Positions 3,859 to 43,055 of a DNA stretch of 64,000 nucleotides are shown in pieces (within the stretch, counting starts at the first letter, position 1; each line of letters starts with the position of its first letter). A model generated the notes under the pieces. It searched no databases. It saw nothing but the letters and a program-made list of their open reading frames with translations, and had not been told where the DNA came from. The translations under genes were made by a program, and so were the position numbers. The DNA is from an uncultured bacterium. Its GTDB lineage: Bacteria > Bdellovibrionota > JACOXK01 > 2-02-FULL-40-11. Where the stretch lies: positions 1,380 to 65,379 of the forward strand of contig CAYJMQ010000004.1 in NCBI GenBank assembly GCA_964371555.1, in the 5' to 3' direction.

Positions 3859-5391
3859 ATGCGCCAACGAATTCTCATTCTCGATTTTGGTTCACAATAT
3901 ACACAACTGATTGCGCGCCGGATTCGTGAATGTAATATCTATTGCGAGATTCATCCCTATTCATTGAAATTAGAAGAGATTGTTTCATTCCGGCCAGCGG
4001 GGGTGGTTCTTTCGGGGGGACCTGCGTCGGTGTTGTCTCCAGATGCTTATTTGATTGATCCAAAAATCTTTGAGTTAAACATTCCGATCTTGGGGATTTG
4101 CTATGGAATGCAGCTTATAGTGAAAGCGCTCGGCGGAAAAGTGGTGAAAGCCGAAGCGCGGGAATATGGTCGTGCGACGATCGAGCTTTGCGCCTCATCT
4201 CAACTTTTCTCCGGCTTTAAAACGGGAGAAAAGCTGCGGGTGTGGATGAGCCACGGCGATCGGATTGAAGATCTGTCAAAAAACTTTATCTCTATCGCAA
4301 CCTCAGAAAATTCGAAGGTTGCCGCCTGTCAGGATGAGGCGAGAAAATTTTACGCGCTTCAATTTCATCCGGAAGTGGTTCATACGCCAGAGGGGAAAAG
4401 GATCCTTTCAAATTTTTTGTTCCTGATTTGTAATTTAAGCCCCTCCTGGACGATGCGATCGTTCATTGACTATTCCATTGAGGCGGTTCGAAAACAGGTG
4501 GGCGATCACCATGTTATTTTGGGGGTAAGCGGGGGGGTCGATTCATCGGTAACCGCCGCTCTTCTGAAACGAGCCATTCCCAATCAGCTCACATTGATTT
4601 TCATCAATAATGGATTTTTAAGGCTCAATGAGGAAAAAAAAGTTGTCGAATTTTTTCATGACTATGATCTTCGTTATGTTGATGCAAGCGAGCGATTTTT
4701 AACAGCGCTCAAAGGGGTTACCGATCCAGAAGAGAAAAGAAAAAAGATCGGTCATATCTTTATTGAAATCTTTGAAGAAGAGGCCAGAAAAATTCCCAAA
4801 GCAAAATTTCTGGGGCAGGGGACACTCTATCCGGATGTGATTGAATCACGATCATTTAAAGGCCCCTCTGCAACGATCAAAACGCATCATAATGTGGGGG
4901 GACTCCCGCCAAAGATGAATCTTGAACTGATTGAGCCTCTCCGTGAGCTCTTTAAAGATGAGGTGCGTCTTCTTGGAAAAGAACTTCAAATGCCGAATGA
5001 GTTGATTTTCAGACAACCATTTCCGGGGCCGGGGCTTGCGGTGCGGATTCTGGGTGAAGTGACGGTGGCCAGGCTTTCGGCTCTTCAGAAAGCGGATCAT
5101 ATTGTTGTTTCAGAGATTAAAGAAGCAGGGCTCTACCATAAAATCTGGCAGTCATTTGCCGTGCTCCTTCCCATAAAAACCGTCGGTGTCATGGGGGATG
5201 AGCGGACATACGAACATGTCATCGCGGTTCGCGCCGTCAAAAGCGAAGATGGCATGACCGCCGACTGGGTCGATCTCCCGCACGAACTTCTCGCCCGTAT
5301 TTCAAACCGCATCATTAATGAGGTCTCCGGCATCAATCGTGTTGTCTACGACATTTCTTCCAAGCCACCCAGCACGATTGAGTGGGAGTAA
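3859..5391 (+). CDS. guaA: GMP synthase (glutamine-hydrolysing)
   Basis: The N-terminal GATase is [24 protein letters not shown]. The PP-loop is [10 protein letters not shown]. The C-terminus is the dimerisation domain. It starts 1 nt after the guaB stop. Confidence 0.9.
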
Positions 5392-7552: not shown

Positions 7553-8101
7553 ATTAAAGCGCCGCGTCGAAATCGGGGGATCTATGCCCCCAAGATAAGG
7601 GTTATTGGAGAAAAAGGGGAACAAATGGGGATTATGCCAGTTCAGCAGGCTTTGGATCTTGCGTATCAAAGTGGGCTTGATCTGGTTGAAATTGCCCCTC
7701 AGGCAAATCCGCCAGTATGTAAGATCATCGATTATGGCAAGTATCTCTATGAGATTAAAAAACAACAGCAGAAAGCCAAAAAGAAACAGGTGGTTATTAA
7801 GCTTCATGAAATTAAATTCGGTGTGCGCACCAATGATCATGATTTAGAGCATAAGCTTCGAAAGATCTGGGAATTTTTGGATGAGGGGGATCGTGTGAAG
7901 ACAACGGTTGTCTTTCGTGGCCGGGAGATGGAGCATAGAGATCTGGGCAAAATAATGCTTGACAAAATAGTTGGAAAACTTGAAGGTATCGGCACAATTG
8001 AGCAGATACCCAAATTAGAAGGAAAGACGCTTTTCATGGTGTTTGCCCCGGTAAAAGCAGCAAAAAAAGAGAAAAAACCCGATGAAATTAAAAACCAATA
8101 G
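7553..8101 (+). CDS. infC: Translation initiation factor IF-3, initiating at a non-canonical ATT (AUU) codon
   Basis: The ORF-track ATG at 7625 lacks the conserved IF-3 N-terminus. An in-frame ATT at 7553 restores IKAPRRNRGIYAPKIRVIGEKGEQMGIMPVQQAL... A GGAGG lies 7 nt upstream of it and overlaps the thrS stop. The AUU start of infC is a conserved autoregulatory feature. Confidence 0.75.
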   Translation: MKAPRRNRGIYAPKIRVIGEKGEQMGIMPVQQALDLAYQSGLDLVEIAPQANPPVCKIIDYGKYLYEIKKQQQKAKKKQVVIKLHEIKFGVRTNDHDLEHKLRKIWEFLDEGDRVKTTVVFRGREMEHRDLGKIMLDKIVGKLEGIGTIEQIPKLEGKTLFMVFAPVKAAKKEKKPDEIKNQ

Positions 8102-9759: not shown

Positions 9760-11820
9760 ATGATCTTAAGTTCCGAATGGCTTTCAGAGTATTTTGCCCT
9801 TCCTAAAAATCTCGATCTTGTTTTTGAAAAGCTTACAGGTATCGGCCTTGAGGTCGAAAATATCCAAAAAAGGAAGCTCGATACGAAATCTCCGCATGTT
9901 ACATTTGAAATCAACGCGCCCCCGAACCGGTCCGATGTTTCAAGTTTTATCGGTGTCGCGCGTGAGCTTTCCGTTGTCTTCAACAAAGATATTCGACTGC
10001 CAAAAGTTCTCATCCCCAAAACAACAAAAAATGACTCGAAAGAAAATATTCAGAAAGAAATCAAGGTCTCTCTTAAAGATTCAAAAAAATGCCCCCGTTA
10101 TATGGGTCGGTTTATCGCGGATGTTAAAATTGGCCCTTCACCGGAGTGGCTCAGGCGCCGATTGGAATCTGTTGGCCAGCGGTCGATTAATAATATCGTC
10201 GATATCACAAATTATGTGATGCTCGAGTACGGTCAGCCTCTGCATGCGTTTGATGCCAGCCGCATTGCGGATCGAATCATTATTATACGATCCGCGATTC
10301 AAAATGAAAAAATAATGACTCTCGATGGCGAAGAGAGAATTTTAACATCGGACGATCTTGTGATTGCAGACAGCTCAGGCCCCATTGCTCTTGCCGGCAT
10401 CATGGGAGGCGCCCGGTCGGAAGTCTCTCAAGACACGAAAAATATTTTTCTGGAAAGCGCCTATTTTGATCCGGTAGCCATTCGAAAAACATCAAAGCGC
10501 CTCGGTTTAAGCTCCGAATCATCGAAGCGGTTCGAGCGGAATGTGGATATAAACGGGGTTAAGACCGCTCTCGATCGCGCGGCAGCGCTCTATTCTTCAA
10601 TAGCTCAGGGCCGGGCGCTTCGGGATCGTATAGATATTTTCCCAAAAAAAATTGCCCCTAAAAAAGTAACCTTAACATTTGAGCGCCTGAAGCAATATCT
10701 GGGATATGAACCCAACCCTTCGAAAGTGAAGCAAACATTAAAACAGCTCGGATTTTTGCCGAAGGCTCCGCTCACCTATGAAATCCCGACTCATCGTGTC
10801 GATATTTCGCGGGATGTCGATCTGATTGAAGAGATCGCGCGATTTGAAGGATACGAAAAAATCCCCTCGATCGAACCGATCGGTTCCGCCGCTCTTCAAC
10901 AGAAAATTGAAAAAAATCGTCTGTTGGAGAGAAAAATAAAAGAAACCCTCTCGTTTCTTGGCTTTACAGAAGTTATAAACTATAGCTTCTGTTCCCAAAA
11001 AGATCTTGAAAAAATTGGTTGGCGTGGCGGGGTGGTTAAAATTCAAAATCCGATAGGGGAGGAGATGGCTGTTCTTCGTCCGACCCTCTCGGCTTCGCTT
11101 CTTAAAATCCTCAAACTAAATATCGATCGCCAGATCCGGAATGTTCGGATTTTTGAGTTGCGATCGGTGTTTGATGAAAAACAAAGGGAAACGAAAATGC
11201 TTGCCGGGCTTTTGAGCGGCCCCCGTTATCCGCTTCATTGGAAACTCAAAGAGGAGGGGATCGATTATTTTGATTTAAAAGGGGTGGTGAGTCATTTTTT
11301 TGGGGCCTTGCGCCACAGGGTAAGTTTTCGTGAAGCTGCGAGTGGTCCCTATTTTCATCCCAGACTTTCAACAAAAATTTGGATCAGTGGAAAATGCTAT
11401 GGCGAAATGGGGAGCATTCACATCCCAACCCTCGATATGTATGATCTCAAACAAGAGGCCTACTTATTTGAAATCAATGTATCAGAGCTTGAAAAGAGCG
11501 GTTTTAGAAAAATTGTTTTTGAACCCCTTTCAAAGTTTCCGGCAGTTCTTCGCGATTTATCGATTTTGGTTCCACTCAAACGCGCTGTTTTATTTGACGA
11601 GCTTTATGAAACAATTGAAAAAGAAGGGGGGGGGCTTGTGACCCGCGTAGAACTCTTTGATATTTACAAAGGGGACTCCATACCTCCCGGAACTGAGAGC
11701 TATACCTTTGCCTTGACATATCAATCGAGCGGCGGAACGCTGAGAGATGAAGAAGTGAATCGTCGACATGAGCATATTTGTCTCAAGCTTTCAGAAAAAT
11801 ATGAAGCCAAAATCAGGTAA
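9760..11820 (+). CDS. pheT: Phenylalanyl-tRNA synthetase beta subunit (short form lacking the N-terminal OB-fold B2 domain)
   Basis: It starts 2 nt after the pheS stop. B1-like MILSSEWLSEYF...GLEVE is followed directly by TFEINAPPNRSDV...GVARE. The B3/B4, B5 and C-terminal FDX-like domains are present. It is 686 aa against about 795 in E. coli. Confidence 0.8.
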   Translation: MILSSEWLSEYFALPKNLDLVFEKLTGIGLEVENIQKRKLDTKSPHVTFEINAPPNRSDVSSFIGVARELSVVFNKDIRLPKVLIPKTTKNDSKENIQKEIKVSLKDSKKCPRYMGRFIADVKIGPSPEWLRRRLESVGQRSINNIVDITNYVMLEYGQPLHAFDASRIADRIIIIRSAIQNEKIMTLDGEERILTSDDLVIADSSGPIALAGIMGGARSEVSQDTKNIFLESAYFDPVAIRKTSKRLGLSSESSKRFERNVDINGVKTALDRAAALYSSIAQGRALRDRIDIFPKKIAPKKVTLTFERLKQYLGYEPNPSKVKQTLKQLGFLPKAPLTYEIPTHRVDISRDVDLIEEIARFEGYEKIPSIEPIGSAALQQKIEKNRLLERKIKETLSFLGFTEVINYSFCSQKDLEKIGWRGGVVKIQNPIGEEMAVLRPTLSASLLKILKLNIDRQIRNVRIFELRSVFDEKQRETKMLAGLLSGPRYPLHWKLKEEGIDYFDLKGVVSHFFGALRHRVSFREAASGPYFHPRLSTKIWISGKCYGEMGSIHIPTLDMYDLKQEAYLFEINVSELEKSGFRKIVFEPLSKFPAVLRDLSILVPLKRAVLFDELYETIEKEGGGLVTRVELFDIYKGDSIPPGTESYTFALTYQSSGGTLRDEEVNRRHEHICLKLSEKYEAKIR

Positions 11821-12585: not shown

Positions 12586-12661
12586 CGGGGTGTGGCTCAG
12601 CCTGGCCTAGAGCACTCGCTTGGGGTGCGAGAGATCGGTGGTTCAAATCCACTCACCCCGA
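12586..12661 (+). tRNA. tRNA-Pro (anticodon GGG), no encoded CCA
   Basis: It folds by hand. Acceptor CGGGGTG pairs with CACCCCG (C1-G72 is typical of bacterial tRNA-Pro). The D-stem is GCTC/GAGC. The anticodon stem is CTCGC/GCGAG with loop TTGGGGT. The T-arm is GGTGGTTCAAATCCACT. Confidence 0.8.
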
Positions 12662-12696
12662 TTGATTTAAATCGATTTAGTTTATAGAGTAAAACC

Positions 12697-13122
12697 ATGA
12701 GATTGTTCCTGATATGGGGTGTTATTTTATGGTTACCCATGAACGTGTTTGGTGATTCTTGTAAAGAATGGTTCAAAAAAGAAAAATTAAAACCAGGAAA
12801 AGATTGTCTTATGAAATGCGTTTCTACACCTGTCGAAATGGGAACATTTCATTGTACATCTACTTGTGAGGAATTATGTAAATCATCCTTATCAACTCAA
12901 GCCATACATAATTTACTATTATATCCAGGGTTAACGAAGAAGGAGAGAGCTTTAATAGCGGAAAAACCAATGGATTTAGCAAATAATCGAGCAGGCATTT
13001 TAGCAGCTGAAGAACTGGAAAAGAATCACAAAAGGACAAGCAAAGCTCTTGAGGAAAGGGCTTTAGAAGAGATGCGACATAATAGATTAATCGTTTTAGA
13101 CAAGAAAGGAATGCCAAAGTGA
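12697..13122 (+). CDS. Hypothetical secreted Cys-rich protein
   Basis: It has a signal peptide, MRLFLIWGVILWLPMNVFG. There is an N-terminal 8-Cys segment and then a charged helical tail. The region is extremely AT-rich. I recognise no family. Confidence 0.45.
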   Translation: MRLFLIWGVILWLPMNVFGDSCKEWFKKEKLKPGKDCLMKCVSTPVEMGTFHCTSTCEELCKSSLSTQAIHNLLLYPGLTKKERALIAEKPMDLANNRAGILAAEELEKNHKRTSKALEERALEEMRHNRLIVLDKKGMPK

Positions 13123-13535
13123 AAATTTTATTTAGAAAATTATTGGTAATCGGTTCAGTCTTTTTATTTATTTCAGCTACTCTCCTGTATGCTCAGCTTT
13201 TTCAGAAAGGGATATTCATGTCGGTTAAAGAGGCTGAGAAAAAGTGGGAGAGTAGATCATTTAATGCCGAAGCGTTTAAGAAAGGCAATATGTCTGTTCG
13301 GGCTTCTATGGCTGCCAGTATTATAAAAGAAAAATCTTTGCTTGGAAAAACAAACGTTGAAATTTGGAAGCTGTTGGGGAGACATGATGGATATTATTTT
13401 AGCGATTTGATCCCTACCTATATTATTGAAGATAATTCCATGCGGGGAGGCGACGTATGGCAGATCGTGTTTTTTTTGAATAGGGATGATCGGGTTAAAA
13501 CGATAACAATTCATAAAAATAGTTCTGAATATTAA
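13119..13535 (+). CDS. Hypothetical exported or membrane-anchored protein
   Basis: Its GTG start overlaps the upstream TGA (GTGA), which suggests translational coupling. There is an N-terminal hydrophobic segment. I recognise no family. Confidence 0.4.
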   Translation: MKILFRKLLVIGSVFLFISATLLYAQLFQKGIFMSVKEAEKKWESRSFNAEAFKKGNMSVRASMAASIIKEKSLLGKTNVEIWKLLGRHDGYYFSDLIPTYIIEDNSMRGGDVWQIVFFLNRDDRVKTITIHKNSSEY

Positions 13536-13553
13536 ATAAATGGAGGGCTTTTT

Positions 13554-14057
13554 GTGCCATTTACGCCATACCATTTTGGCCCTGGCTTATTAATTAAAGC
13601 TGTTTTTCGAAGAAAATTCAGTTTAGGAATTTTTATTTTGGCTCAAATTCTTATTGATTTTGAGGTTATCTGGAATCTATTAAAAGGAAATGATCGGCTT
13701 CATACTTTTTTCCATTCGTATATCGGCTCTTGTGTCGTTATTATAATTGTTGTTATTTTTGCTTACTTTATCAGCCATTTTTTAGATAAATATATTTATT
13801 TAAAAAATTTGTTTTCAAAGTTTATACCGTTAGATTCAAAACCATTTTTTTTCTCAGCCATCATTGGAGCGTGGTCGCATGTTTTTTTAGATAGTTTGAT
13901 GCATGCTGATATGACGCCATTGTATCCATTTTTTGCCAATAATTTTTTACTGAATCGAATATCATTATTGTCCTTGCATTTGGGCTGCGTATTTTCAGGA
14001 GGAATAGGCGCCGTGATATGGGGGGTAACTAAATTTAGAGAATATAAACAGTCGTAG
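13554..14057 (+). CDS. Hypothetical polytopic membrane protein (His-rich, possibly a membrane-bound metal-dependent hydrolase of the YdjM/DUF457 type)
   Basis: It has about 4 hydrophobic helices. Conserved-looking His and Asp residues occur at helix ends (YHFGPG, HSYIG, WSHVFLDSLMHAD). The family call is tentative. Confidence 0.35.
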   Translation: MPFTPYHFGPGLLIKAVFRRKFSLGIFILAQILIDFEVIWNLLKGNDRLHTFFHSYIGSCVVIIIVVIFAYFISHFLDKYIYLKNLFSKFIPLDSKPFFFSAIIGAWSHVFLDSLMHADMTPLYPFFANNFLLNRISLLSLHLGCVFSGGIGAVIWGVTKFREYKQS

Positions 14058-14112
14058 TCTCCATATTATTTGTTAACTGTCCACAAAAGGGAACTTGTCC
14101 CTTGCCAATACC

Positions 14113-14142
14113 GGTTCGCATACCGTACACCCGCCCCGATTG
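14113..14142 (+). repeat. Degenerate direct repeat of the tRNA-Pro 3' end (putative attR-like remnant)
   Basis: CCGGTTCGCATACCGTACACCCGCCCCGATTG was compared with the tRNA 3' half GGTTCAAATCCACTCACCCCGATTG. There is a 9-bp exact CCCCGATTG core plus flanking similarity. It lies at the point where the AT-rich block ends. Confidence 0.35.
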
Positions 14143-14260
14143 TGCCCAAAAAGAATCTCTCCCTAATACCCCAAAAAATGCCGGTCAATAAAATTAGCGA
14201 CTATCTTCCAGCTTGGGCCAATCATTGAAGCTTTCTGGAATTTTTGCTTCACATTCTGCG

Positions 14261-14920
14261 TTATCTAATCCGCTGAAGGATCCGTGCCCCTTCGTTCTCA
14301 TCGATGATCATAAATTTATTTTCTTTCGGCTCAAAGGCATAGACGTTTCCGGTACCGATATCAAACCACCATCCATGCAACCTGAGGGCACCTGTCGTCA
14401 GGCCATTGTCCACTTGGGGGTAGGTCTTTAGATTTTCTAGCTGACTCATCACATTTATCTGGGAAAGCTGGTCTTGAAGGCTTAACGAAGGGTCAAAGGC
14501 CTTTCCTTCTTCCAGTTGACGTCTTGCTTCATGGCCGTGCCGGATCCACTGTTTCAAATTCGGCGTAATTCCTTCTTTGCTCAAGAGAGATGCCATGCCA
14601 GCGCACCCAGAATGGCCGCAGATAATAATGTCCTTCACCTTCAGCATCTCCAACGCGATTTCAATTGCCGCAGCCTCAGACTCCCCATTCGGGTTTTCTT
14701 TGTCCGGATTGGCCGGGGGCACCAAGTTGCCCGGATTCCTGACAACGAAAAGGTCTCCCGGATCGGTGGATGCGAAGAGATTTGGAGCGACACGACTATC
14801 GGAGCAGGCGATCATGAGCGCGTCGGGGAACTGACCCAAGGCCAGATGCGCAAACTGTTCCCGGAGCCCCGGAAGGACGTTCTGGTGAAAATTGATGACC
14901 CCCTGTACTAACTTAATCAT
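14261..14920 (-). CDS. Beta-class carbonic anhydrase
   Basis: The zinc-ligand motifs are CSDSRV and HSGCAG. It is 219 aa and ends in MIKLVQGVI...-type CynT/Can architecture. Confidence 0.8.
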   Translation of the reverse strand: MIKLVQGVINFHQNVLPGLREQFAHLALGQFPDALMIACSDSRVAPNLFASTDPGDLFVVRNPGNLVPPANPDKENPNGESEAAAIEIALEMLKVKDIIICGHSGCAGMASLLSKEGITPNLKQWIRHGHEARRQLEEGKAFDPSLSLQDQLSQINVMSQLENLKTYPQVDNGLTTGALRLHGWWFDIGTGNVYAFEPKENKFMIIDENEGARILQRIR

Positions 14921-14975
14921 AATTTCTTAAATCCTTGTAGATGTCCCCTATAATAACGTTGCTCTCCTTTTTTAA

Positions 14976-15875
14976 TCAACCGAAGAGTTTTTTACGGGCG
15001 GCTTCGGAAATGGCAACGACTGCGGGATGTTTGAGTCTCCGCTCTACGGAGATGGCGTAGAACCGCTCTCGCACATCTTCCACCCGCCCGATGGCCTGAA
15101 CCTGATACTGTCTCTGAACTTCGGTCTCTATCACCGAGGGTACGGCAAAAATCCCGTTCCCCGTCTGTCCAAATACCTTCAGTAATGCGCTGTCCTCAAA
15201 CTCACCGACCACCCGGGGACGAATCCCTTTTGACATCAACCACTGATCGAGGGAACGTCGCTCGGTCGTATTTTCTGTTGGGAGCAAAAGAGGGGCTCCG
15301 TCTAAAGACTTTGGGAATCCTCGCCGATAAGCCGCTGCCAGACGTGGCGCCGCCATGAAAACCACGCCGCATTCCCCGAGAAGATGGTTAAACGCCCGGA
15401 TTCGAATTGTCGGTCCGACGGGGGCATCTGACAGAACGACATCGAGGTGATGCACCGCCAGTTCCGCCAGGAGCCGGTCTGGTTTGTCTTCGCGGCAGAC
15501 GATCTGAACCGGTTCGGAGAGGCGTAAAGCTGGTTCTAAAAGCCTGTAGGCCACCAGCTTCGGAACGACGTCGGCCACACCCACAAGGAGGCATAGAGGT
15601 CGAGAAGAGGGACCACCTTTCAAAACATCCTGAAGTTCCCGTCCCAGCGAGAAAATTTCATCGGCATAGCGAAAAACCACCCGACCGACGTCGGTCAAAA
15701 TCAGATTTCGTCCCGATCGCTGAAAGAGTTTTTCTCCCAACGATTCCTCAAGAGATCGGATCTGTCCGCTAATAGTCGGTTGGGCCAGACGAAGTTCCGA
15801 TGTCGCGCGGGCAATACTCCCTTCCTTCGCAACGGTCCAAAAATAAAGGAGATGGTGATAGTTAATCCAATTCAT
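14976..15875 (-). CDS. LysR-family transcriptional regulator, NhaR-like
   Basis: The N-terminal HTH INYHHLLYFWTVAKEGSIARA...TISGQIRSLEE closely resembles E. coli NhaR. A C-terminal substrate-binding domain is present. It was trimmed to M7 of the ORF-track frame. Confidence 0.7.
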   Translation of the reverse strand: MNWINYHHLLYFWTVAKEGSIARATSELRLAQPTISGQIRSLEESLGEKLFQRSGRNLILTDVGRVVFRYADEIFSLGRELQDVLKGGPSSRPLCLLVGVADVVPKLVAYRLLEPALRLSEPVQIVCREDKPDRLLAELAVHHLDVVLSDAPVGPTIRIRAFNHLLGECGVVFMAAPRLAAAYRRGFPKSLDGAPLLLPTENTTERRSLDQWLMSKGIRPRVVGEFEDSALLKVFGQTGNGIFAVPSVIETEVQRQYQVQAIGRVEDVRERFYAISVERRLKHPAVVAISEAARKKLFG

Positions 15876-15982
15876 CCACCTATTCGGATACATCGGATAA
15901 ACAAATGAATCAATTCAAAACTATCTATTAGTCAATTTTGGGTTCATATCCTAAAAACGTCGGTCTTGGTTGGAAGAAAGAA

Positions 15983-16861
15983 ATGACTAAGCCACTTATG
16001 GAATCCGATATCCCCTATTTGCCGCTCCTCTTTCACGGCAAGGTCCGGGACATTTATGACTTGGGAGAAGAGTTACTCCTTGTAGCAACCGACAGGCTCT
16101 CAGCCTTTGACGTTGTCTTTCCGACTCCGATCCCTGGCAAGGGGGAGATCCTGACTCAACTGAGCTACTTCTGGTTTCAGAAGATGAAGGAGATCATCCC
16201 CAACCACGTGTCCGAGCGACCTGTCGATGAGATCTTCAAGACGAAAGAGGATGTCGTCCTCTATGGTAAGCGCTCCATGCGCGTCAAAAAGACAACGCCG
16301 TTAGCCATCGAGGCCATCATACGCGGCTACCTTTCGGGCTCAGGCTGGAGCGATTATCAAAAAAACGGTGCCGTCTGCGGGATCAAGCTTCCGAATGATA
16401 TGAAGGAGTCCGAAAAAATCCCAGAACCCATTTTTACACCGGCCACAAAAGCTCCCCAAGGACAACATGACGAAAATGTTTCATTTGAGGTGGCCTGCAA
16501 GATCGTCGGTCGTGAGACGGCGGAAAAAGTCCGCCATGTGAGTCTGCGTATTTATAAGGAAGGATTGGCCCATGCGAATAGCCGTGGGCTTCTCTTGGCC
16601 GACACGAAGTTTGAGTTTGGTATCCTGAACGGGGAACTGATCCTCATCGATGAGGTCCTCACGCCGGATTCGTCCCGCTTTTGGCCGAAGAACCAATATC
16701 AGGTGGGGATATCGCCCCCGAGTTTCGACAAACAATTTGTGAGGGATTACCTCACGAAAATTGGCTGGAACAAGAAGCCACCAGCGCCGGAATTGCCGCC
16801 GAACATCGTTGAACAGACTGCCGCCCGTTATCGGGAGGCCTTGGAGCGCCTGACGAAATGA
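15983..16861 (+). CDS. purC: Phosphoribosylaminoimidazole-succinocarboxamide synthase (long form)
   Basis: Motifs GKVRDIYD, LLLVATDRLSAFDVV and LADTKFEFG are present. It is about 292 aa from the ATG at 15983. The ORF-track start at 15938 is also possible. Confidence 0.8.
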   Translation: MTKPLMESDIPYLPLLFHGKVRDIYDLGEELLLVATDRLSAFDVVFPTPIPGKGEILTQLSYFWFQKMKEIIPNHVSERPVDEIFKTKEDVVLYGKRSMRVKKTTPLAIEAIIRGYLSGSGWSDYQKNGAVCGIKLPNDMKESEKIPEPIFTPATKAPQGQHDENVSFEVACKIVGRETAEKVRHVSLRIYKEGLAHANSRGLLLADTKFEFGILNGELILIDEVLTPDSSRFWPKNQYQVGISPPSFDKQFVRDYLTKIGWNKKPPAPELPPNIVEQTAARYREALERLTK

Positions 16862-16902
16862 CCAAGAGGAGCGGGAAATAAAAATGATGCTGGGGGTTCT
16901 CA

Positions 16903-17310
16903 CTAGATCTTCCCCTTTAGCCTAGCAAGCCATTGTGGAGGGAAAACAAAATAAAGAACCAGTATCAGCACACCGAATGCCAAGTAGGCGGTCTTAAACA
17001 CCCACGGCTCAAAATTATAATAAAGAAGCCTGCTCACCCAGTAGCTGATGAATGAGCCACCATAACCCTGCTTTCCGGCCATCAAACGGAGCTTCTCCTC
17101 CCAAGTCGTCCATGGACAAGCAATACCCAATAAAGTTTGCCCCATCATTATGCCAACTAAAAGAAGATGAATATTACGAAACCATGAATTCAGCACAAAC
17201 GACCACCTAAAAACCTTACCCATAAGAACAAGAGGAACTGGCACGATAATACAAAGAACATACAGAAAATGAATGACCAAAAGAAGATCAGCTAAGAACA
17301 GAAGTAACAT
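16903..17310 (-). CDS. Hypothetical small membrane protein (DUF2784-like)
   Basis: A 135-aa ORF with 4 predicted TM helices. An ACPWTTWE motif is typical of DUF2784 as I recall it. Confidence 0.4.
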   Translation of the reverse strand: MLLLFLADLLLVIHFLYVLCIIVPVPLVLMGKVFRWSFVLNSWFRNIHLLLVGIMMGQTLLGIACPWTTWEEKLRLMAGKQGYGGSFISYWVSRLLYYNFEPWVFKTAYLAFGVLILVLYFVFPPQWLARLKGKI

Positions 17311-17513
17311 GATTTCAGAATAGTATTTGCATCGGTTAGAATGCCTAAATTTTCACTTCCACCGGTGGCAGTACTGGATGTACGAGCTGTCAACTTCGGA
17401 TTCACTGAGAGCAACACTATTTCCAGAGACTTCATAACCAAAGAAAGGGAGAATCAAGTGAACAGCTCTCAAACTAGCATTTTTCAAAGAATCAATTCTA
17501 AAAAATTAAACCC

Positions 17514-18257
17514 TTATCTCCGAACTGGCTCTATATAATTTCGAAAGAGAATTCCTACCTTTTGCAGCGCAACCTCCATTGCAAATCGAATCATAAAGTT
17601 GGGGAGAACGCTTGAAATGTTTTCTGTTTCCATCTCACCCTGGAAAATGGCAAGTAATGAATCTTCTTTTTCTCTGTTTCTGGAAACACGATGCCCCATC
17701 TGAGTGGAAACCAGTGTGGGTCTTATTTTTTGAACCGTCATCGTTCCCCTAAATCCAACAAATCGCTCATTTTCAAATTTTAATCCAAGAGAATTCGCGG
17801 GGACAACTTGAAAATTGATAATCGTGCGGTCAATCAGTTTTTCCTCATGGATTTTCATAAGGCTCTCCACTTCATAATCGATCAATGCTGTTTTTAATGC
17901 TGATTTTATATGAATGTAGGTTCCCCCCGTCTTTATCTTTTTTAACGAGGAGGCCTTGATATATTTGGGCGCGATCTTCTCCAAAGATTCGTAATCAGTC
18001 ATAAATTTCGTAACCTGTTCCAGAGAAACATGGTGAAGTATTCCCCCGGCTTTGACAGAAAGCATGCGTAAATTTTCTTTTTCAGGATGCGTAAGGGTAT
18101 TTACAACACTGATGATCTCGCGATTCATCATCCTCTTTTGGATTTCTGCCCGATGATAAAAATCAATGGCGGGTTTTAAATCGAGGGGGCAAAAAAGAAT
18201 AAGGACAAGGCAACAAAAGAAAACAGTTCCCCACCATTTTCCATTGGCCGTTTTCAT
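17514..18257 (-). CDS. Hypothetical secreted protein
   Basis: It has an N-terminal signal or anchor, WWGTVFFCCLVLILFCPL. It is 247 aa. It is the last gene of the LMF-like operon and follows the EF-hand lipoprotein after a 93-bp gap. I recognise no family. Confidence 0.4.
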   Translation of the reverse strand: MKTANGKWWGTVFFCCLVLILFCPLDLKPAIDFYHRAEIQKRMMNREIISVVNTLTHPEKENLRMLSVKAGGILHHVSLEQVTKFMTDYESLEKIAPKYIKASSLKKIKTGGTYIHIKSALKTALIDYEVESLMKIHEEKLIDRTIINFQVVPANSLGLKFENERFVGFRGTMTVQKIRPTLVSTQMGHRVSRNREKEDSLLAIFQGEMETENISSVLPNFMIRFAMEVALQKVGILFRNYIEPVRR

Positions 18258-18350
18258 TATGATCTACTAGAACCTTACATTTCAAGTGTAGCAGATGTTG
18301 ACAAAACATTGCAAGAAGTCGCTGGCGCCCATTTCCTTAAGGACATGGGC

Positions 18351-20696
18351 TTACGGCTGTTTCAAATATCCCCTCATGACATGCGCGAGGAGACTCGCGA
18401 CTTTAAGGCGGTCAGACCCGATTTTTGAAGATGAAAAGAGAAGATCGGCGCTGAATTCCGGGAGTTTTCCAAATGAGAGAGAATATTCAAAAACACGTCT
18501 GTAGATTACTTTTTTATCTATAAACGGCATCAAAAAATTATTGAGTAAAATAGATAAGAACTTTCCAATGGCGCCAAAGACCGGAATTTTTCCTGCGGCG
18601 CCCGGCTGACTGTTATATTCATCAACTAATTTTTCAATGATCGGTTCAAAGTGTCTATACATCAATCGGATCTCACTTTTGTTTAGAGTTCCATCCTGAT
18701 CATTGTCAAAACGCAGAAAAAGATGTTCGATCGTTCGCACAATCATAAAGATTGCTGACAGCTCTTTCACAGAAATAATTTGAGGGTGATTCCTTCCAAT
18801 AAGCTGAACGATCGTTTCAATGTATTGAATGATGTCCTTTTCTGACATCACCTTCATGGCCACTGGAAAATACCACCGAAGCGTTGGAACCTTTTTAAGC
18901 GATTCCACAAGATTTTCTCTGAGCAAGCCGATCTCTTTTGAGTTTGGGAACTGATGGTGGAAGGGGATGACCTCATGATCCCAATAAAACCAGGTTACAG
19001 CCCGATTGTTTTCAAGAATAAAGCTCGTCGCTTCGATAATTTCATAACGATCGAGAGTGTTGTCGCCATTGCTGTTATAGAGCATCTGATCTGAAAGGAG
19101 CATAAGAATTTTTCCAAGTGTCTTGGTGTCCAAATCAAGCGGATTGGTCCAAATTCTTCGATGGGGGGTCAGATTCTCTTTTTTATCCCCTTCGGTGAGC
19201 ATGTCGAGTCCTTTCACAAGCCTCTGGAGGGTCGCCAGAAATGATGTGAGCTCTATATCTCCAATTTCAGCAGGGGAGCCGGGATCAAGCGGAACCATGG
19301 AGAGCTTTCCATCGCGGTTTTTATCATAGGCTGAAATGATGCGATCGATCGGCACAAACGCTGTCTGCGTGAGTGTAAAGGAATGCTTTCGAATGACCTC
19401 GGTTTTCTGAAAGGGGGTTGTCCAAAGATAGAGCGTCTTTGTGAAATCAGAAATCATCAGCTTAAATTTTTTCCTGATCTCCGGGGAGAGATTTCCGTCA
19501 TGAGCCTTAATCCATGCCGCTATTTCTTCTTTTTTGATTTCATAAATTTCCCCTGAAAAAGAAAAAAGGGAAGAGGCCTTTCCATAAATATCGATACTTT
19601 CATCAAAAATTTTAAGAAGCTCTTTAATTTCATCGCGACCCAAAACTTGAGGATTTCCCCCAAATAATTGCATTTTAAACTCAAAGACCGCGGTCACAAA
19701 TTCGCGAGCCTTTCCACCGATATGCGCGTGAAGAAGCTCAAGGAGTGTAATTAACTCCTCACGTTTTATTTCTGAAAGATTTTTATCAAAAAATGCCTTT
19801 AGCAATACCTGCAAAAGATATTGATAGGCATGAAGGAAACTAAGAGAGTCTTTGGATGTCCAGATCTCTTTCTCCAGATGCTGGTTGATTTGAGTGACCA
19901 GATGGTAGACCGATTCCAGATATGTTAAGAATTCTGGCATCTCACGGGCGACAACATTCTCTTCGCTCTCTCCAAAAAGCATACGATTGGCGAGATAGCC
20001 AGCCCGAATGTAGTGCGATCCGATCTCGTCTTCGAGCCCTTCCCAAAGCTGATATTGTCTGAGAAGGAGCTCTTTTGGAGTATCATGATCGATCAGACCG
20101 TGATTATTTTCAAACATCGCGCGGATCAGATCGATGTAACCGCTAAAGAGTCTTTTCCTCAGTTCCCAGTAGAGATCTTCTTTTTTATGGGTCTCTCTGT
20201 ATGAAAAAGAGAGCTTCGAAAGCCGGCTGATTTTTTGAGAGCCCCTCCTGACCCTTTTTATAACCTCTTCAATTTCAGAAAAACGGATTGAGTCCCCTCG
20301 TTCACCCAAAAGAAGATTACGCGCCGAAAAGAGGCGGTCGACCCAGATCTGAAGTTCCTCAGGATCACCGAGAATTTTTGAGTTGAGTAGTGTTTCTATT
20401 TCCCTTCTCGTGAGCTCCCCTTTTTTGCGTGGTTCAATTTGTTCATCGGCCTCATGGAGTATGGAGAGCAGACATTCTGTCGTTTGGCTAATTTCATTTT
20501 CACCCAGGGTTCCCATTTCAAAATGATTTTTAATTTTATCAAGATCGATTTGGCAGGAACCGTCGCTGAGGGCCGGATCATTTGTGAGGTCGAGCCGCTC
20601 TTTATTTGATCTGGGCGAAGGGGCTTTTTCTCCAACCCAGCCGCAGCCAGTTATCCACACAAACACAAGACTTAAAAGAAGATATTTAAAAAACAT
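18351..20696 (-). CDS. Large lipoprotein with EF-hand calcium-binding loops
   Basis: A 781-aa ORF. The lipobox is LVFVWITGC. There is a canonical EF-hand loop DNDQDGTLNKSE plus the further DxNxDG-like loops DKNRDGKLS and NGDNTLDRYE. It is mostly helical. It overlaps the upstream OMP gene by 11 nt. Confidence 0.5.
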   Translation of the reverse strand: MFFKYLLLSLVFVWITGCGWVGEKAPSPRSNKERLDLTNDPALSDGSCQIDLDKIKNHFEMGTLGENEISQTTECLLSILHEADEQIEPRKKGELTRREIETLLNSKILGDPEELQIWVDRLFSARNLLLGERGDSIRFSEIEEVIKRVRRGSQKISRLSKLSFSYRETHKKEDLYWELRKRLFSGYIDLIRAMFENNHGLIDHDTPKELLLRQYQLWEGLEDEIGSHYIRAGYLANRMLFGESEENVVAREMPEFLTYLESVYHLVTQINQHLEKEIWTSKDSLSFLHAYQYLLQVLLKAFFDKNLSEIKREELITLLELLHAHIGGKAREFVTAVFEFKMQLFGGNPQVLGRDEIKELLKIFDESIDIYGKASSLFSFSGEIYEIKKEEIAAWIKAHDGNLSPEIRKKFKLMISDFTKTLYLWTTPFQKTEVIRKHSFTLTQTAFVPIDRIISAYDKNRDGKLSMVPLDPGSPAEIGDIELTSFLATLQRLVKGLDMLTEGDKKENLTPHRRIWTNPLDLDTKTLGKILMLLSDQMLYNSNGDNTLDRYEIIEATSFILENNRAVTWFYWDHEVIPFHHQFPNSKEIGLLRENLVESLKKVPTLRWYFPVAMKVMSEKDIIQYIETIVQLIGRNHPQIISVKELSAIFMIVRTIEHLFLRFDNDQDGTLNKSEIRLMYRHFEPIIEKLVDEYNSQPGAAGKIPVFGAIGKFLSILLNNFLMPFIDKKVIYRRVFEYSLSFGKLPEFSADLLFSSSKIGSDRLKVASLLAHVMRGYLKQP

Positions 20697-22062
20697 AACT
20701 CCCCTTCATCCAGATCCGATCATTGGCGCGAAACATCCCCCAATAGGTCTGCTCTTCGCCGGAGATGACATCAAAACCGATACCAAATTTCATCTGTGTA
20801 AAAGGTCCCAGAGCGACTTCCCCCCGCAGCTGCCTCTGTCTCATAGAAAGATCTGTTTCACAAGAAAGGGAAAATTGAGAAGCAGCCGATGGCCGTAGAG
20901 CTATTTTTGAAAACAACGTTTGTTCGGGGTGGCTGGGGAGAGGGGAGGGGGGGATCGCGGCATCCCTCAAATTTTTCGTAAATAGGGCGGCCACAGTCCA
21001 CTCAGGGAGCCAGCGACGGTTTGTTTTCATCTGAACCCCTGTCATATTTTTTAATGCCGATTCGCGATCGACATAAACCCCATCGTAAAAAAAATCGATA
21101 TCCCAAAAGATTTTGCTCTGGATGATGTTCACCCCAGACTGGAAACCGATCATCTGCTCCCGAATAAATTCGGGATAAAGATGAACCATCGCCTCTAATA
21201 ATGACTCATCTTTAATATGAAGTTTAGCGTTATGACGAAGAGTCGGCTCAGGATTGAGATAAGCGGCCCCCAGAGCGGCAAAACGGATCCGTTCTGTCTG
21301 TAAAGAAATCCGCAGCCATCCCCCTTGATTCAATACGACATTTTTGGCTGATGGGAGATGAAGCGAATAATCGATAGGAATCACCGCATCCCCCACTTTT
21401 ATTTCTTCAAAAAGAGGGGGGAGCCAGCGGGAAACAGAACTGAGATGCTCATCTGAAGTTTTTTCAAACCGAATCCCCCCCCTGTTTGGAATAAACAGCG
21501 GTGAAAAGAAAAGTTCAATTTGGAAGATGGGGCGCTGATAGGAACCAAGAATTCCAACGATTCCATCGGTGATGTTCGTTAATGGATCAATCACAAATTT
21601 TGGAAACATTTTTTGAAGCGGCCCCCCGCACATTGTATCGATATCCCGCTTTGCCCAGTCTGGAAGGATTCTTCCAATTCGCAGGTTTAAATTTTTTGAA
21701 TTTAAGCCTGCAAATATTTCTCGAACATCAAACCAGTCTGATGTCTGCTGCGGAATGACCCCCCAGAGATCTACGGAGAGTCCATACTGAAACCATGCCG
21801 GTCTTTTCTTCGATTTGTGCGATAAATTCAGATGATACCTCGACTCCAGTTGATTATTGAGGTGTATGGATGAATAGGCAAGCGCCATCGCCTCCGCCTC
21901 GAGAGTCTGTGAATAAATCGTACCCCCGATACCAATGACACCCAAGATATAAAGAAGAAGAGAAAGAAAGAATACCGTTCGAGACAACACCCTTATCACG
22001 AACGGAGTTGTAGCACAGTCCTTTGCCCTATCCAATAAAAAGTAATTTAATTCCCCGTCCAC
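20686..22062 (-). CDS. Putative outer-membrane beta-barrel protein
   Basis: A 458-aa ORF. It has an internal signal-like segment VFFLSLLLYILGVIGIGGTIYSQTLEAEA, so the true start is probably downstream of the ORF-track M. Amphipathic beta patterning runs throughout. The C-terminus ...WMKGSYVF ends in Phe. It abuts the upstream gene. Confidence 0.45.
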   Translation of the reverse strand: MDGELNYFLLDRAKDCATTPFVIRVLSRTVFFLSLLLYILGVIGIGGTIYSQTLEAEAMALAYSSIHLNNQLESRYHLNLSHKSKKRPAWFQYGLSVDLWGVIPQQTSDWFDVREIFAGLNSKNLNLRIGRILPDWAKRDIDTMCGGPLQKMFPKFVIDPLTNITDGIVGILGSYQRPIFQIELFFSPLFIPNRGGIRFEKTSDEHLSSVSRWLPPLFEEIKVGDAVIPIDYSLHLPSAKNVVLNQGGWLRISLQTERIRFAALGAAYLNPEPTLRHNAKLHIKDESLLEAMVHLYPEFIREQMIGFQSGVNIIQSKIFWDIDFFYDGVYVDRESALKNMTGVQMKTNRRWLPEWTVAALFTKNLRDAAIPPSPLPSHPEQTLFSKIALRPSAASQFSLSCETDLSMRQRQLRGEVALGPFTQMKFGIGFDVISGEEQTYWGMFRANDRIWMKGSYVF

Positions 22063-24012
22063 TCATGAAGGTCGATCAGGTTTCTTATCAATTACAACGG
22101 GTGTGACGGGGAGGGTTGCTTTCAAGGTACGCCTCCACCAGGCGCGGGTATTCTTTTTGGTCTTTAGATCGGTAAAATGATATTCGTAGAATTGGATGCG
22201 TAAATATTTGGGTGGTTTTCCCTCAAAGGGATTTTTTTCAAGAAGGGAGATGACATCGGGAGTCCCTTGATAAAGACGCATGAGGAAGTTTTGAAACCAA
22301 AACGACTGCTGAAAATTTTGAAGCGGCAAAAACCACATCTGCCAGTCAAGGCGCGGCTGGTGCGGGGCCACAAAAGAAGGCCGGCGTTTGATGTCCCCCG
22401 GTTTGTATTTAAATTCATAAGCGAGCCAGTTTTTATTGTCATAGCTCCCTTCAAGAACGATTTCATTTCGTTCTGTCGTCATCACGGCAAAAAGCCCATA
22501 GCTATTCACAAGATGGAAGGTCTGCGCGACAGCAATCATTTTTTTAAGCGGGGAGGGAATACGCCTTGAAAAATGCGCAATCATGAAGGTACTTGAAACA
22601 ATCAGAACAAAAAGGGCGATGACCGCAATCAAAGATTGTCTACGGAGAGAGGCCGGAATTTTTTTCGGCTCTCTTTGAGAAAACCACCGTTTAAAACAGG
22701 TGTCGTCCAAAAGCAAAAAAGAAAGGGCGATCGTAAGCCAGTTGAAATAGGTGTAGTTACCCGTGAGGATGATTATCATCTGGAAAATCACAAGCCCGGC
22801 AAAACCGAAAAATTTGAGCCTTCTTGGAAAAAAGATCAAAAACGGGAGAAACAATTCGGACGCGAACATAAAACCACAGGAGACTTTGTCAAACCATTCG
22901 GGGAGCTGATGAACATACCAGGCGATCGGGGTGGGGAGCGGCTGCGTCTCATAGTGATAGTTCAGCGCTGTGAACGAATGCCATGTCGGATCGGCGCTGG
23001 TCAGCTTTACAACCCCTGAACTAAAGACGAGCCTGAAAAGAAGCCAACGGAGAAGAAAATGAATCAGATGCGATGGAATCACAAACTGTTTCCAGCGGGA
23101 TCTGATTTGAGAATGAAATAAGAAAATGGAAAGAAAGCCTGTTTCCAAGAGCAGGGCATCCCACTGAAACCGCATGAATTCGCCGCCCGCTATCGTTAAA
23201 GAAAGATAAAACACCCAGAGAAGCCATAGGGAAATTGTCGGCGCAAATCCTAAAAAGAGAATGATCGATAGAATAACGCCCCCCATCGATAGAAAGTCGA
23301 GAAAGAAGTTGGTCGGGCTAAGCCACGCAAGTGTTGGAAACCAAAAGTAGGCCGAGGATCCCACGTGGGTTTTGATCGCTTTTAAGAGAAGTTCAACAGG
23401 AAGTATCCCATCTGCGCCGATGAGCCCCCGGATCTGAATCCAGAGCGAGAAAAAAGCAATTCCATAGATGATGGCAAGGGCTTTGACAAACAGCCAGCTT
23501 GAAAAAAGATAGGTCGGCGGCTCAACTGTTTTTCCCCAAAAGAGCGTCGTTAATTTTGAAAAAAGCGGTCGATGGTTTGCAATGAACCGGTAAATCGATT
23601 CCGTTACAAACGAAGCCCCCGGAATATTTTTATAACACCAAAACATCCATTTTCTTCCACGGGCATAAGAGAGCGATTTAAAGACGGCCGCGGCTCCGCT
23701 ATAAATGGTTCCATCCGTTTCGACAAACTGCACGGAAGATTTGAACTGGTCTTTCGTAATTTTTGTAAATTGAGCCAAAACGTCCTGAAACGGCGCGTAT
23801 GCGACCGCATCGCCTGTCATCTTTTTCCAACGCTCAATCCAGAGGCGGCAAAATCCGCACTGACCATCGTAGATCATCCACGGGCACGGGTGGGTTCGCA
23901 TACCGGTTTCAAGTCTAATAAAAACGATCGCAAAAGACCAGATTTCTGTGAGATAGGGAGGGAATATGGATATAAACAAAGAATATGCCCTCGCAACAGA
24001 GCGGGCGGGCAT
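22063..24012 (-). CDS. Fusion protein: N-terminal DUF393/DCC-family thiol-disulfide oxidoreductase domain plus lipase maturation factor (LMF1)-like polytopic membrane domain
   Basis: The CPWMIYDGQCGFCRLWIERW motif is the DCC1-like Cys pair. It is followed by more than 8 TM helices and a C-terminal soluble region, the architecture of bacterial LMF homologues. The likely start is MRTHPC at 23904. Confidence 0.5.
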   Translation of the reverse strand: MPARSVARAYSLFISIFPPYLTEIWSFAIVFIRLETGMRTHPCPWMIYDGQCGFCRLWIERWKKMTGDAVAYAPFQDVLAQFTKITKDQFKSSVQFVETDGTIYSGAAAVFKSLSYARGRKWMFWCYKNIPGASFVTESIYRFIANHRPLFSKLTTLFWGKTVEPPTYLFSSWLFVKALAIIYGIAFFSLWIQIRGLIGADGILPVELLLKAIKTHVGSSAYFWFPTLAWLSPTNFFLDFLSMGGVILSIILFLGFAPTISLWLLWVFYLSLTIAGGEFMRFQWDALLLETGFLSIFLFHSQIRSRWKQFVIPSHLIHFLLRWLLFRLVFSSGVVKLTSADPTWHSFTALNYHYETQPLPTPIAWYVHQLPEWFDKVSCGFMFASELFLPFLIFFPRRLKFFGFAGLVIFQMIIILTGNYTYFNWLTIALSFLLLDDTCFKRWFSQREPKKIPASLRRQSLIAVIALFVLIVSSTFMIAHFSRRIPSPLKKMIAVAQTFHLVNSYGLFAVMTTERNEIVLEGSYDNKNWLAYEFKYKPGDIKRRPSFVAPHQPRLDWQMWFLPLQNFQQSFWFQNFLMRLYQGTPDVISLLEKNPFEGKPPKYLRIQFYEYHFTDLKTKKNTRAWWRRTLKATLPVTPVVIDKKPDRPS

Positions 24013-37599: not shown

Positions 37600-37627
37600 T
37601 TTAAAATAGTTTTTTGTCTAAGAATTC

Positions 37628-38902: not shown

Positions 38903-38906
38903 ATTT

Positions 38907-42457: not shown

Positions 42458-42477
42458 TTTCTTGTATTTTAAATCTC

Positions 42478-42896: not shown

Positions 42897-43055
42897 AAAA
42901 CAATAAGAAATGAAGAGAGAGATCATGAAAAAATCAAAGGGGATTATATTTTACGTATTTGCCACACTCCCTCAGAGTTTTATGCTATGGAAACAGGTCA
43001 GGTGTTATGTTATGGCCCTGACGGTGGAATTTGACTTTTTGGAAGGGGGATATTT

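Follow-up and report, generated by a model that had tools for sequence, protein, structure and literature searches.

A small islet at the 3' end of a tRNA-Pro gene, probable relic of a mobile element with a predicted toxin-immunity gene pair

We analysed a stretch of DNA of 64,000 nucleotides from an uncultured bacterium (contig CAYJMQ010000004.1, called the window below, with positions counted from its first letter), in which three small open reading frames (ORFs), named ORF1, ORF2 and ORF3, directly follow a tRNA-Pro gene and form an islet of ~1.5 kb (12662-14152). It probably descends from a tiny mobile element that inserted site-specifically behind the tRNA gene, at its 3' end, with a predicted toxin-immunity gene pair and one extra gene as cargo, and that is now fixed and decaying. 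The evidence comes from the composition of the islet, its distribution among relatives, a short repeat at its distal edge, the homologies of its genes and the recurrence of related gene pairs beside other tRNA genes. An original prediction, made from the sequence alone, had seen here a decayed tRNA-targeting integrative element that could carry a small secreted toxin module.

Composition of the islet

The composition of the islet is atypical for the window. Its GC content is 34.7% overall and 27% in the lowest 200-bp window, compared with 44.0% for the whole 64 kb, 44% for the left flank and 51% for the right flank, and its AT-richness is matched by 2% of the 1481-bp windows across the 64 kb. 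The GC content at third codon positions (GC3) lies between 0.29 and 0.35 in the islet ORFs, against 0.43 to 0.46 in the neighbouring pheS, pheT, ihfA and merR genes. The original prediction had announced a local GC content of 20-30%, which is too low, and flanks at 45-50%, of which the contrast with the islet stands and the exact range does not. The gene order was correctly anticipated: the tRNA-Pro gene was recovered by ARAGORN and Rfam and is followed by three consecutive ORFs on the + strand (12697-14057).

A conserved thrS-infC-rpmI-rplT-pheS-pheT-ihfA-merR block ends with the tRNA-Pro gene, and the related loci L004, L005, L006 and L008 have this block with tRNA-Pro at its end too. The genes that precede tRNA-Pro in the window are pheS, pheT, one of the IHF/HU type and one of the MerR family. 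The islet yielded no intrinsic terminator, promoter-like sites were no commoner there than expected, and the Rfam scan returned two tRNAs and no other RNA family.

Comparison with relatives at the tRNA-Pro site

Relatives were taken from the best MerR homologues, which provided five informative contigs; a PheT search aimed at contigs from closer organisms yielded distant loci alone, from Flavobacterium and Brevefilum. L004 is 88% identical at the nucleotide level over 10.4 kb of the left flank and its contig stops exactly at the tRNA-Pro 3' end, so that it says nothing about the sequence beyond. L005 (71% nucleotide identity) is collinear with the window from pheT through the tRNA; its blastn alignment stops at 12663 and resumes at 17530, the tRNA being followed in L005 by 180 bp and then by orthologues of window 17514-20696. 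L005 contains neither the islet, which begins 1-3 nt past the end of tRNA-Pro, nor the block that follows it in the window, which encodes a carbonic anhydrase, a LysR protein, PurC and a DUF2784 protein (14153-17513). The carbonic anhydrase and LysR genes are therefore not the ancestral neighbours of the tRNA in L005, and the check proposed with the original prediction, whether tRNA-Pro directly precedes them in relatives, has a negative outcome in this sole relative spanning the site. The post-islet DNA expected at an empty tRNA-Pro site starts with TGTGCCCAA. In L012 and L039 no tRNA-Pro follows merR, hence no empty-site comparison could be drawn from them.

In a close relative, L013 (Logan SRR22387837), all three genes are present as well, with 91-94% nucleotide identity to the window and a full-length ORF1. 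The stretch common to both loci covers 12748-14152; homology stops 10 bp past the distal repeat described below, and unrelated genes lie beyond. The islet thus behaves as a unit of its own: it is shared with L013 without the right block, and the GC contents of the two blocks deviate in opposite directions (35% versus 51%). The beta-carbonic anhydrase and LysR genes lie on the opposite strand and converge on the islet from the right. At the borders of the second block (14153-17513; right end 17311-17513), neither att-like nor other repeats were found above chance level. To this extent, the original claim of a tRNA-targeting element holds for a discrete unit at the tRNA 3' end, shared with L013, absent from L005 and with homologous cargo at three other tRNA genes. 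As a separate observation, the second block is itself atypical, with a GC3 of 0.55-0.62 against about 0.45; it lies at the same hotspot and includes a housekeeping purine gene.

The contig of the closest relative, L004 (13.4 kb; positions 10378-10456), breaks off precisely where tRNA-Pro ends, and that of L013 begins ~78 bp past the equivalent position. These contig ends are compatible with population heterogeneity, in the form of an assembly branch, at the integration site.

Terminal repeat

An exact 9-mer, CCCCGATTG, is common to 12656-12664 (the tRNA 3' end plus TTG) and 14134-14142, as the original prediction had noticed. It closes a non-coding stretch of 85 bp that runs from ORF3 to the repeat end and terminates in CCGGTTCGCATACCGTACACCCGCCCCGATTG (14111-14142). 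When the 203 bp behind ORF3 were submitted to 5000 dinucleotide shuffles, 251 of these contained a match of nine or more nucleotides to the 3' half of the tRNA, as did 6% of the real 200-bp tiles of the window. In L013 the distal repeat reads CTCACCCCGATTG, which is identical over 13 nt to the tRNA end plus TTG; a 13-nt match occurred in 2 of 5000 shuffles (p about 4e-4) and in none of 1272 window tiles. The repeat becomes more credible only through the L013 copy, an exact 13-mer at the edge of homology. By comparison of these copies, the distal copy in the window appears to be a decayed (11/13) short att-like core at the edge of the shared unit. The alternative of a longer decayed tRNA copy in the islet tail was rejected, the sequence upstream of the 13-mer being at shuffle level.

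Elsewhere in the window, 50108-50131 matches the T-arm and acceptor 3' half of tRNA-Pro at 20 of 24 positions and outscores the islet repeat; it lies inside a 327-aa ORF (49753-50736, - strand) and was dropped as a probable chance match. The islet tail also contains a hairpin with a 6-bp stem (AAGGGA/TCCCTT) within CCACAAAAGGGAACTTGTCCCTTGCCA at 14080-14108, a segment unchanged in L013 though the surrounding DNA is 91% identical. This hairpin may correspond to a transcript end or to a recombination-related site.

An internally deleted DUF6973 gene

ORF1 has a signal-peptide-like N-terminus, in agreement with the secreted protein of the original prediction, and 6 cysteines instead of the 8 counted there. 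Seven relatives were found in the databases, the four closest being 211-228 aa long and all carrying the Pfam domain DUF6973. ORF1 itself scores 15.9 bits against DUF6973 (PF22322), over profile positions 84-118 only, and does not reach the gathering cut-off of 27 because of an internal deletion; the full-length homologues, including the L013 copy, score 65-80 bits. In the protein alignment ORF1 is short by ~70 internal residues, and in the DNA alignment L013 has 210 bp extra, in frame, between window positions 12957 and 12965. The deletion junction is bordered by short imperfect repeats. The deletion removes the DAxRH (DAFRH) and AHE motifs and leaves MDLANNRAG alone, while DAxRH, AHE, DLxNN, the signal peptide and the 6 cysteines are kept in all 9 of the other DUF6973 genes paired with an ORF2 homologue. 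From these alignments, ORF1 is best read as a degraded descendant of DUF6973 proteins, not as an intact member, and should be flagged as a degraded gene. Exact-sequence look-ups of ORF1, ORF3 and P0121 returned no match.

The profile of the family was compared with the PDB. The best match was 9uu0, a fusion of maltose-binding protein (MBP) with BteO, the effector of the BteO-BtiO pair presented in the last section, with an E-value of 0.0048; Wnt-8a came second (E 0.21), with an alignment that spans the NNRAG motif. A 63-residue BteO fragment reaches 40.8 bits on DUF6973, for a cut-off of 27, and BteO is therefore a member of the family. Its residues R143/H144, H167/E168 and D187/D191 align with the family motifs DAxRH, AHE and DLxNN, respectively. 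The full-length relatives of ORF1 possess the residues equivalent to the RH and HE pairs of BteO and ORF1 lacks them, which makes a disarmed toxin the most likely prediction for the window copy. The original proposal of a small secreted toxin module is thus retained as a BteO-BtiO-like pair, most likely without an active toxin, since the gene is internally deleted. Searching the PDB with Foldseek, the DUF6973 model returned nothing significant, with a best E-value of 0.14 for armadillo-like noise; a weak lead pointed to Wnt3 (6ahy_B, prob 0.75, E 2.5).

A predicted immunity gene

The GTG start of ORF2 overlaps the TGA stop of ORF1 in a 4-bp GTGA, a coupling that the original prediction had described exactly. 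ORF2 belongs to no Pfam family and has eight close relatives; wherever their contigs extend far enough, a DUF6973 gene lies immediately upstream of them. This DUF6973-ORF2 order is found in at least 12 loci (L013-L023, L025 twice, L027-L029 and L034). The AlphaFold (AF2) model of ORF2 (pLDDT 85) comprises an N-terminal membrane helix, corresponding to the hydrophobic residues 1-28, a helical hairpin and a small beta-sheet. The first Foldseek match of this model is 9uu1, BtiO, with an E-value of 7.2e-3, a prob of 1.00, a TMt of 0.61 and 24% identity over 102 columns; the next matches are BamE chains with prob values of 0.57-0.80. The ORF2 sequence profile gave no match in the PDB.

The searches with ORF1 and with ORF2 are independent, and they lead to both partners of one characterised effector-immunity pair. 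On the strength of the model and of the gene order, ORF2 is predicted to be the cognate immunity protein, facing the periplasm. A likely role is thereby given to an ORFan family.

A YdjM-like membrane protein gene

ORF3 starts with GTG, 8 nt after a GGAGG. It has 7 histidines and ~4 hydrophobic segments, in line with the His-rich four-transmembrane (TM) protein announced by the original prediction. The statement that none of the three ORFs had a recognisable family did not survive the searches, which relate ORF1 to DUF6973 and ORF3 to YdjM/DUF4184. ORF3 scores 24.6 bits against YdjM (PF04307, cut-off 29) and 22.5 bits against DUF4184 (PF13803, cut-off 25). Its family comprises 1214 cluster representatives at E<=1e-3, and all 27 sampled relatives match YdjM (E<=1e-3), 21 of them also matching DUF4184. 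ORF3 keeps all 15 invariant columns, the invariant His, Asp and Glu residues being H7, D35, E37, H50, H54, H109, D113 and H117. We consider it an apparently intact, full-length YdjM/DUF4184-like protein and a putative membrane metallohydrolase. Among the loci examined, it accompanies the toxin-immunity pair only in the window and in L013.

Related modules at other tRNA genes

Homologues of the predicted toxin-immunity module recur beside tRNA genes. In L014-L020 and L023 the DUF6973-ORF2 pair adjoins tRNA-Leu(CAA), as part of a 2.9-kb AbiEi-AbiEii-DUF6973-ORF2 unit enclosed by two direct repeats of 53 bp that match perfectly; in L015 they lie at 5043-5095 and 7917-7969, and the latter is the 3' part of tRNA-Leu(CAA). 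No integrase was found inside this 2.9-kb segment. Three alternative structures were assembled on its far side (L015/L016, L019 and L021). In L015 and L016, this side is occupied by an element that encodes a large serine recombinase and a type IV coupling protein and contains a relaxase-like gene; in L019, by a different sequence (alternative left flank, L019 1-1718); and in L021 (1328-1380), the right end is joined to the left end via a single repeat copy, which corresponds to a circle or tandem junction. The tRNA-Leu element looks active and mobilised in trans, in the manner of a cis-mobilisable element (CIME).

Downstream of tRNA-Arg(ACG), L025 carries two DUF6973-ORF2 pairs and an orphan ORF2 homologue, and in L032 a copy of the module lies 24 bp from tRNA-Phe(GAA). 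DUF6973 domains were also found on 13 plasmids and none was found in phage records. As a check for a defence-system or phage origin, the three islet proteins were compared with the PADLOC and PHROG families, with no match.

Other genes accompany these modules. The L025 segment 3521-8824 also encodes a 23S-rRNA-IVP protein and a histidine phosphatase and resembles a toxin-immunity cassette array. ORF2-like genes without a toxin gene are present in L024, L030, L031 and L033 too. In two unrelated loci, DUF4325 (STAS-like) and HATPase_c_2 genes adjoin DUF6973-ORF2 pairs (L013 1643-2925 and L025 6480-7553), separate in L013 and fused into one gene in L025. Their similarity to the N-terminal part of a PADLOC DrmA model is weak, and they may be a further conflict-system component of such islands.

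Features of the islet and of its surroundings

The coordinates of the islet components and of the adjacent block are collected in Table 1.

Table 1. Positions of the islet features and of the neighbouring block in the window
Feature	Position	Strand	Remarks
tRNA-Pro, anticodon GGG	12586-12661	+	ARAGORN; Rfam 60 bits
tRNA-proximal att-like core CTCACCCCGATTG	12652-12664	+	final 10 nt of the tRNA plus 3 nt
ORF1, 141 aa	12697-13122	+	Sec-type signal peptide, 6-Cys N-domain, internally deleted DUF6973
ORF2, 138 aa	13119-13535	+	N-terminal membrane anchor, predicted BamE-like/BtiO-like periplasmic domain, intact
ORF3, 167 aa	13554-14057	+	~4 TM segments, YdjM/DUF4184-like
Non-coding tail of the islet, with distal att-like core	14058-14152	+	48% GC; L013 homology stops at 14152
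Distal att-like core CCCGCCCCGATTG	14130-14142	+	11/13 versus the tRNA copy; exact 9-mer at 14134-14142
Second block, outside the islet: beta-carbonic anhydrase (-), LysR (-), purC (+), DUF2784 (-)	14153-17513		51% GC

Several observations concern the wider window. The cumulative GC skew reaches its maximum at ~13000-14500, where gene orientation flips from mostly + to mostly -; the islet may therefore sit at a terminus-like switch point of strand bias, where islands and rearrangements tend to gather. Another segment of ~2.2 kb (21786-24031) has no counterpart in the otherwise collinear L005. A long region of 33-40% GC (~37000-46500) encodes an AcrB-type resistance-nodulation-division (RND) transporter and outer-membrane efflux proteins. 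In L039, a gene equivalent to 36358-37599 directly follows merR, a gene order from which we deduce that the DNA was inverted or rearranged, one breakpoint lying at the tRNA-Pro site and the other where the low-GC region begins or ends.

Origin of the islet and alternative explanations

In the proposed scenario, a tiny element carrying a Sec-exported BteO-like toxin, a membrane-anchored immunity protein and a YdjM-like gene would have integrated at the 3' end of tRNA-Pro in an ancestor common to the window organism and the L013 organism, where it would have been bounded by two short copies of the tRNA 3' end with the core CTCACCCCGATTG. The toxin domain of ORF1-type proteins would reach the periplasm via the Sec signal peptide, and ORF2 would bind and neutralise it in the periplasm of the producer. 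The element would then have become fixed, its distal att core decaying to 11/13. In the window lineage, the 210-bp in-frame deletion between short imperfect repeats would have stripped the target-binding (or active-site) part of the toxin and left the immunity gene intact, the genome keeping the protection and, most likely, no active toxin. The tRNA-Leu relative suggests mobilisation in trans by a recombinase encoded elsewhere. Because the best-preserved related element (L015) also lacks an integrase of its own, the islet may always have moved in this way, and the integrase loss put forward by the original prediction is not supported. The islet is most likely an ordinary but well-preserved relic of a mobile element.

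Several results weigh against this scenario. Neither in the islet nor beside it did we find an integrase, a recombinase or a remnant of one, its 1.49 kb being filled by three ORFs that do not resemble recombinases. With 13 nt at best, the repeat is short; the window copy is degenerate and, taken alone, marginal (p about 0.05); the T-arm resemblance put forward by the original prediction does not hold, since 2929 of 3000 shuffles score equal to or better than GGTTCGCATACC versus GGTTCAAATCC. Concerning the relatives, L005 is the sole one that spans an islet-free tRNA-Pro site, and the window differs from it by 4.85 kb (12664-17513) and not by 1.5 kb. The left junction is unseen in close relatives, as L004 ends at the tRNA and L013 begins inside ORF1, and the adjacency to tRNA-Pro in the L013 lineage is therefore assumed. 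Differing genes follow merR/tRNA-Pro in each of L006, L008-L011, L012 and L039. This position is a general synteny breakpoint, and the polarity of the event, insertion or deletion, is therefore deduced from composition and mobility. As for function, the links to BteO (E 0.005) and to BtiO (E 0.007, Foldseek) are individually modest, 9uu0 is not among the top 50 Foldseek matches of the DUF6973 model, and both the toxicity of the DUF6973-ORF2 subfamily and the binding of ORF1 to ORF2 are predictions by analogy. Finally, the remaining codons of ORF1 evolve relative to L013 with a ratio of nonsynonymous to synonymous substitution rates (dN/dS) of 0.19. The shortened ORF1 may still be constrained and used, or the deletion may be recent; relaxed selection on the truncated gene was not seen, the substitutions being too few to judge.

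One alternative is that the islet is no independent unit: a single event, an insertion or rearrangement spanning 12664-17513 with the islet at its left end, would have delivered the genes for the carbonic anhydrase, LysR, PurC and the DUF2784 protein as well, or L005 would have deleted the whole stretch. L005 lacks all of 12664-17513, the synteny breakpoint after merR/tRNA-Pro is found in all relatives examined and both sub-blocks are atypical (35% and 51% against 44% GC). However, their GC contents deviate in opposite directions, what L013 has in common with the window is limited to 12748-14152, beyond which its genes are unrelated, and the tRNA-like repeat falls where the two sub-blocks meet, with no repeat found at 17311-17513. 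We regard a single 4.85-kb event as unlikely. Vertical inheritance is a still poorer explanation, and quite improbable: the three genes would be native envelope genes, AT-rich through the amino-acid composition of membrane and secreted proteins, and the CCCCGATTG match would be a coincidence. The marginal p-value of the window repeat and the lack of an integrase agree with it, as do dN/dS values below 1 in all three genes and a divergence between the islet and L013 (6-9%) close to that between the flank and L004 (12%), as co-inheritance predicts. Yet GC3, a measure on which the amino-acid composition has little influence, is low too, L005 lacks the islet, the 13-mer repeat of L013 falls exactly at the homology boundary, homologous pairs lie beside other tRNA genes in repeat-flanked elements and DUF6973 domains occur on plasmids.

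A different alternative concerns the function of the genes rather than their arrival. ORF1 and ORF2 could form a self-directed envelope module, for instance a regulator associated with OmpA or peptidoglycan, or an enzyme acting on lipid head groups together with a membrane partner, next to an enzymatic ORF3, in which case the short ORF1 would be a functional variant. This would account for the Sec export of ORF1 to the cell's own periplasm with no dedicated export system nearby and for the conserved remainder of ORF1 (the dN/dS given above); BamE-like proteins and YdjM are ordinary envelope proteins, and the superfamily is seen mostly as lipid-head-group enzymes in PMC12419801. Against it, the sole characterised member of the family is a bactericidal effector, neutralised by the very protein to which ORF2 is most similar (PMC12541434); pairs in tandem and ORF2-like genes on their own (L025, L024, L030, L033) are typical of toxin-immunity islands, the module is accompanied by AbiE and mobile-element genes, and the deletion takes out residues required for target binding. 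An envelope module of this kind thus appears slightly less probable than the 4.85-kb event, and more probable than vertical inheritance.

Beyond the acquisition of a toxin-immunity islet, a wider and more doubtful proposal can be made, which we advance tentatively. The window and its relatives may represent an undescribed delivery form of BteO/Min-Wnt toxins outside Bacteroidota, in which a Sec-exported 6-Cys toxin and a membrane-anchored BamE-like antidote would be carried on integrase-less mini-elements of 1.5-3 kb at tRNA Pro, Leu, Arg and Phe genes among uncultured 'Deltaproteobacteria'-like bacteria. The window would then be an end state, with the toxin disarmed and the immunity kept against toxin-making neighbours. 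Such a natural knock-out, where residues essential in BteO are gone and the immunity gene stays, is the pattern expected if immunity is retained for defence after the loss of the weapon.

Comparison with known systems

CIMEs are integrase-less cis-mobilisable elements that accrete beside integrative and conjugative elements (ICEs) or integrative and mobilisable elements (IMEs), as known from the Streptococcus thermophilus ICESt1/ICESt3 literature. Like these and other tRNA-linked islands, the islet lies 3' of a tRNA gene and shows a putative distal repeat of the tRNA 3' end, an atypical composition and accessory cargo. It differs from them by its size of only 1.5 kb, its short degenerate repeat and the lack of a recombinase. 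The L015 element is closer to CIMEs, with perfect 53-bp att-like repeats, no integrase, a mobile neighbour and an apparent excision or tandem junction; the L021-type junction belongs to this tRNA-Leu element and not to the islet. With regard to the YdjM/DUF4184 family, ORF3 is alike in length, in its ~4 TM segments and in all the invariant His/Asp/Glu positions, and differs in falling just under both Pfam cut-offs and in its pairing with a toxin-immunity module, known only here and in L013.

The closest characterised system is BteO-BtiO, a type VI secretion effector-immunity pair from Bacteroides fragilis (He et al., PNAS 2025, PMC12541434; PDB 9uu0 and 9uu1). BteO is a bactericidal effector neutralised by BtiO, and its mechanism is reported as non-enzymatic; R143/H144, H167/E168 and D187/D191 are essential for its toxicity and for binding of the OmpA C-terminal domain (PMC12541434). 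The ORF1 family belongs to the same Pfam family, DUF6973, and has the same three motifs (AFRH, AHE and DLxNN), the toxin-immunity gene order is the same, and the predicted fold of ORF2 is closest to BtiO. The differences lie in context and export. BteO is encoded in the variable region of a type VI secretion system (T6SS), whereas the immediate neighbours in the islet are tRNA-Pro, ORF2, ORF3 and the carbonic anhydrase gene, without T6SS context, and the ORF1-ORF2 module rides tRNA-linked mini-elements. The N-terminus of BteO is a single TM helix, while the ORF1 family has a Sec signal peptide and a 6-Cys domain, and this signal peptide argues for a route other than T6SS. Conversely, BtiO is secreted by means of a signal peptide, whereas ORF2 is TM-anchored. 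The host of BteO-BtiO is a Bacteroides, that of the islet an uncultured lineage labelled 'Deltaproteobacteria'. Lastly, BteO has three motifs, and the window ORF1 lacks two of them.

The organisation of the module is also close to that of the Min-Wnt toxins of the Lipocone superfamily with BamE-like immunity proteins (Burroughs, Nicastro and Aravind, eLife 2025, PMC12419801). That work predicts Min-Wnt toxins with signal peptides in two-gene units with membrane-anchored BamE-like immunity proteins, and names a membrane protein with 4 TM segments as another possible partner. It places the simplest Min-Wnt versions mainly in Gram-positive bacteria with a predicted enzymatic mechanism, argues that the superfamily consists mostly of lipid-head-group enzymes, and mentions a related domain, SAA, that binds OmpA. 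The DUF6973 domain is likewise all-helical and soluble, and its NNRAG motif is like the sNxxGR of the SAW clade; our module likewise associates a signal-peptide toxin with a membrane-anchored immunity protein, predicted to have the BamE-like fold of two helices and three strands. This likeness is one of motif and of sub-significant Wnt matches (E 0.21; Foldseek E 2.5), and not of the profiles used in that paper. The two studies also meet on one point: the OmpA-binding residues of BteO, reported as non-enzymatic, are the conserved positions predicted to be the enzymatic active site of Lipocone proteins (PMC12541434 versus PMC12419801).

Both families have been described recently, and tRNA-linked islets with toxin-immunity cargo are already well known. 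What is mildly new here is the Sec/6-Cys form outside Bacteroidota, the integrase-less carriage at several tRNA genes and the natural knock-out of residues essential in BteO. The toxin family, of which BteO was the first member to be characterised, as recently as 2025, would thus be extended to a new phylum, a new export route and a new vehicle, and the ORF1 subfamily offers a second test case for the views of these proteins as non-enzymatic OmpA binders or as lipid-head-group enzymes.

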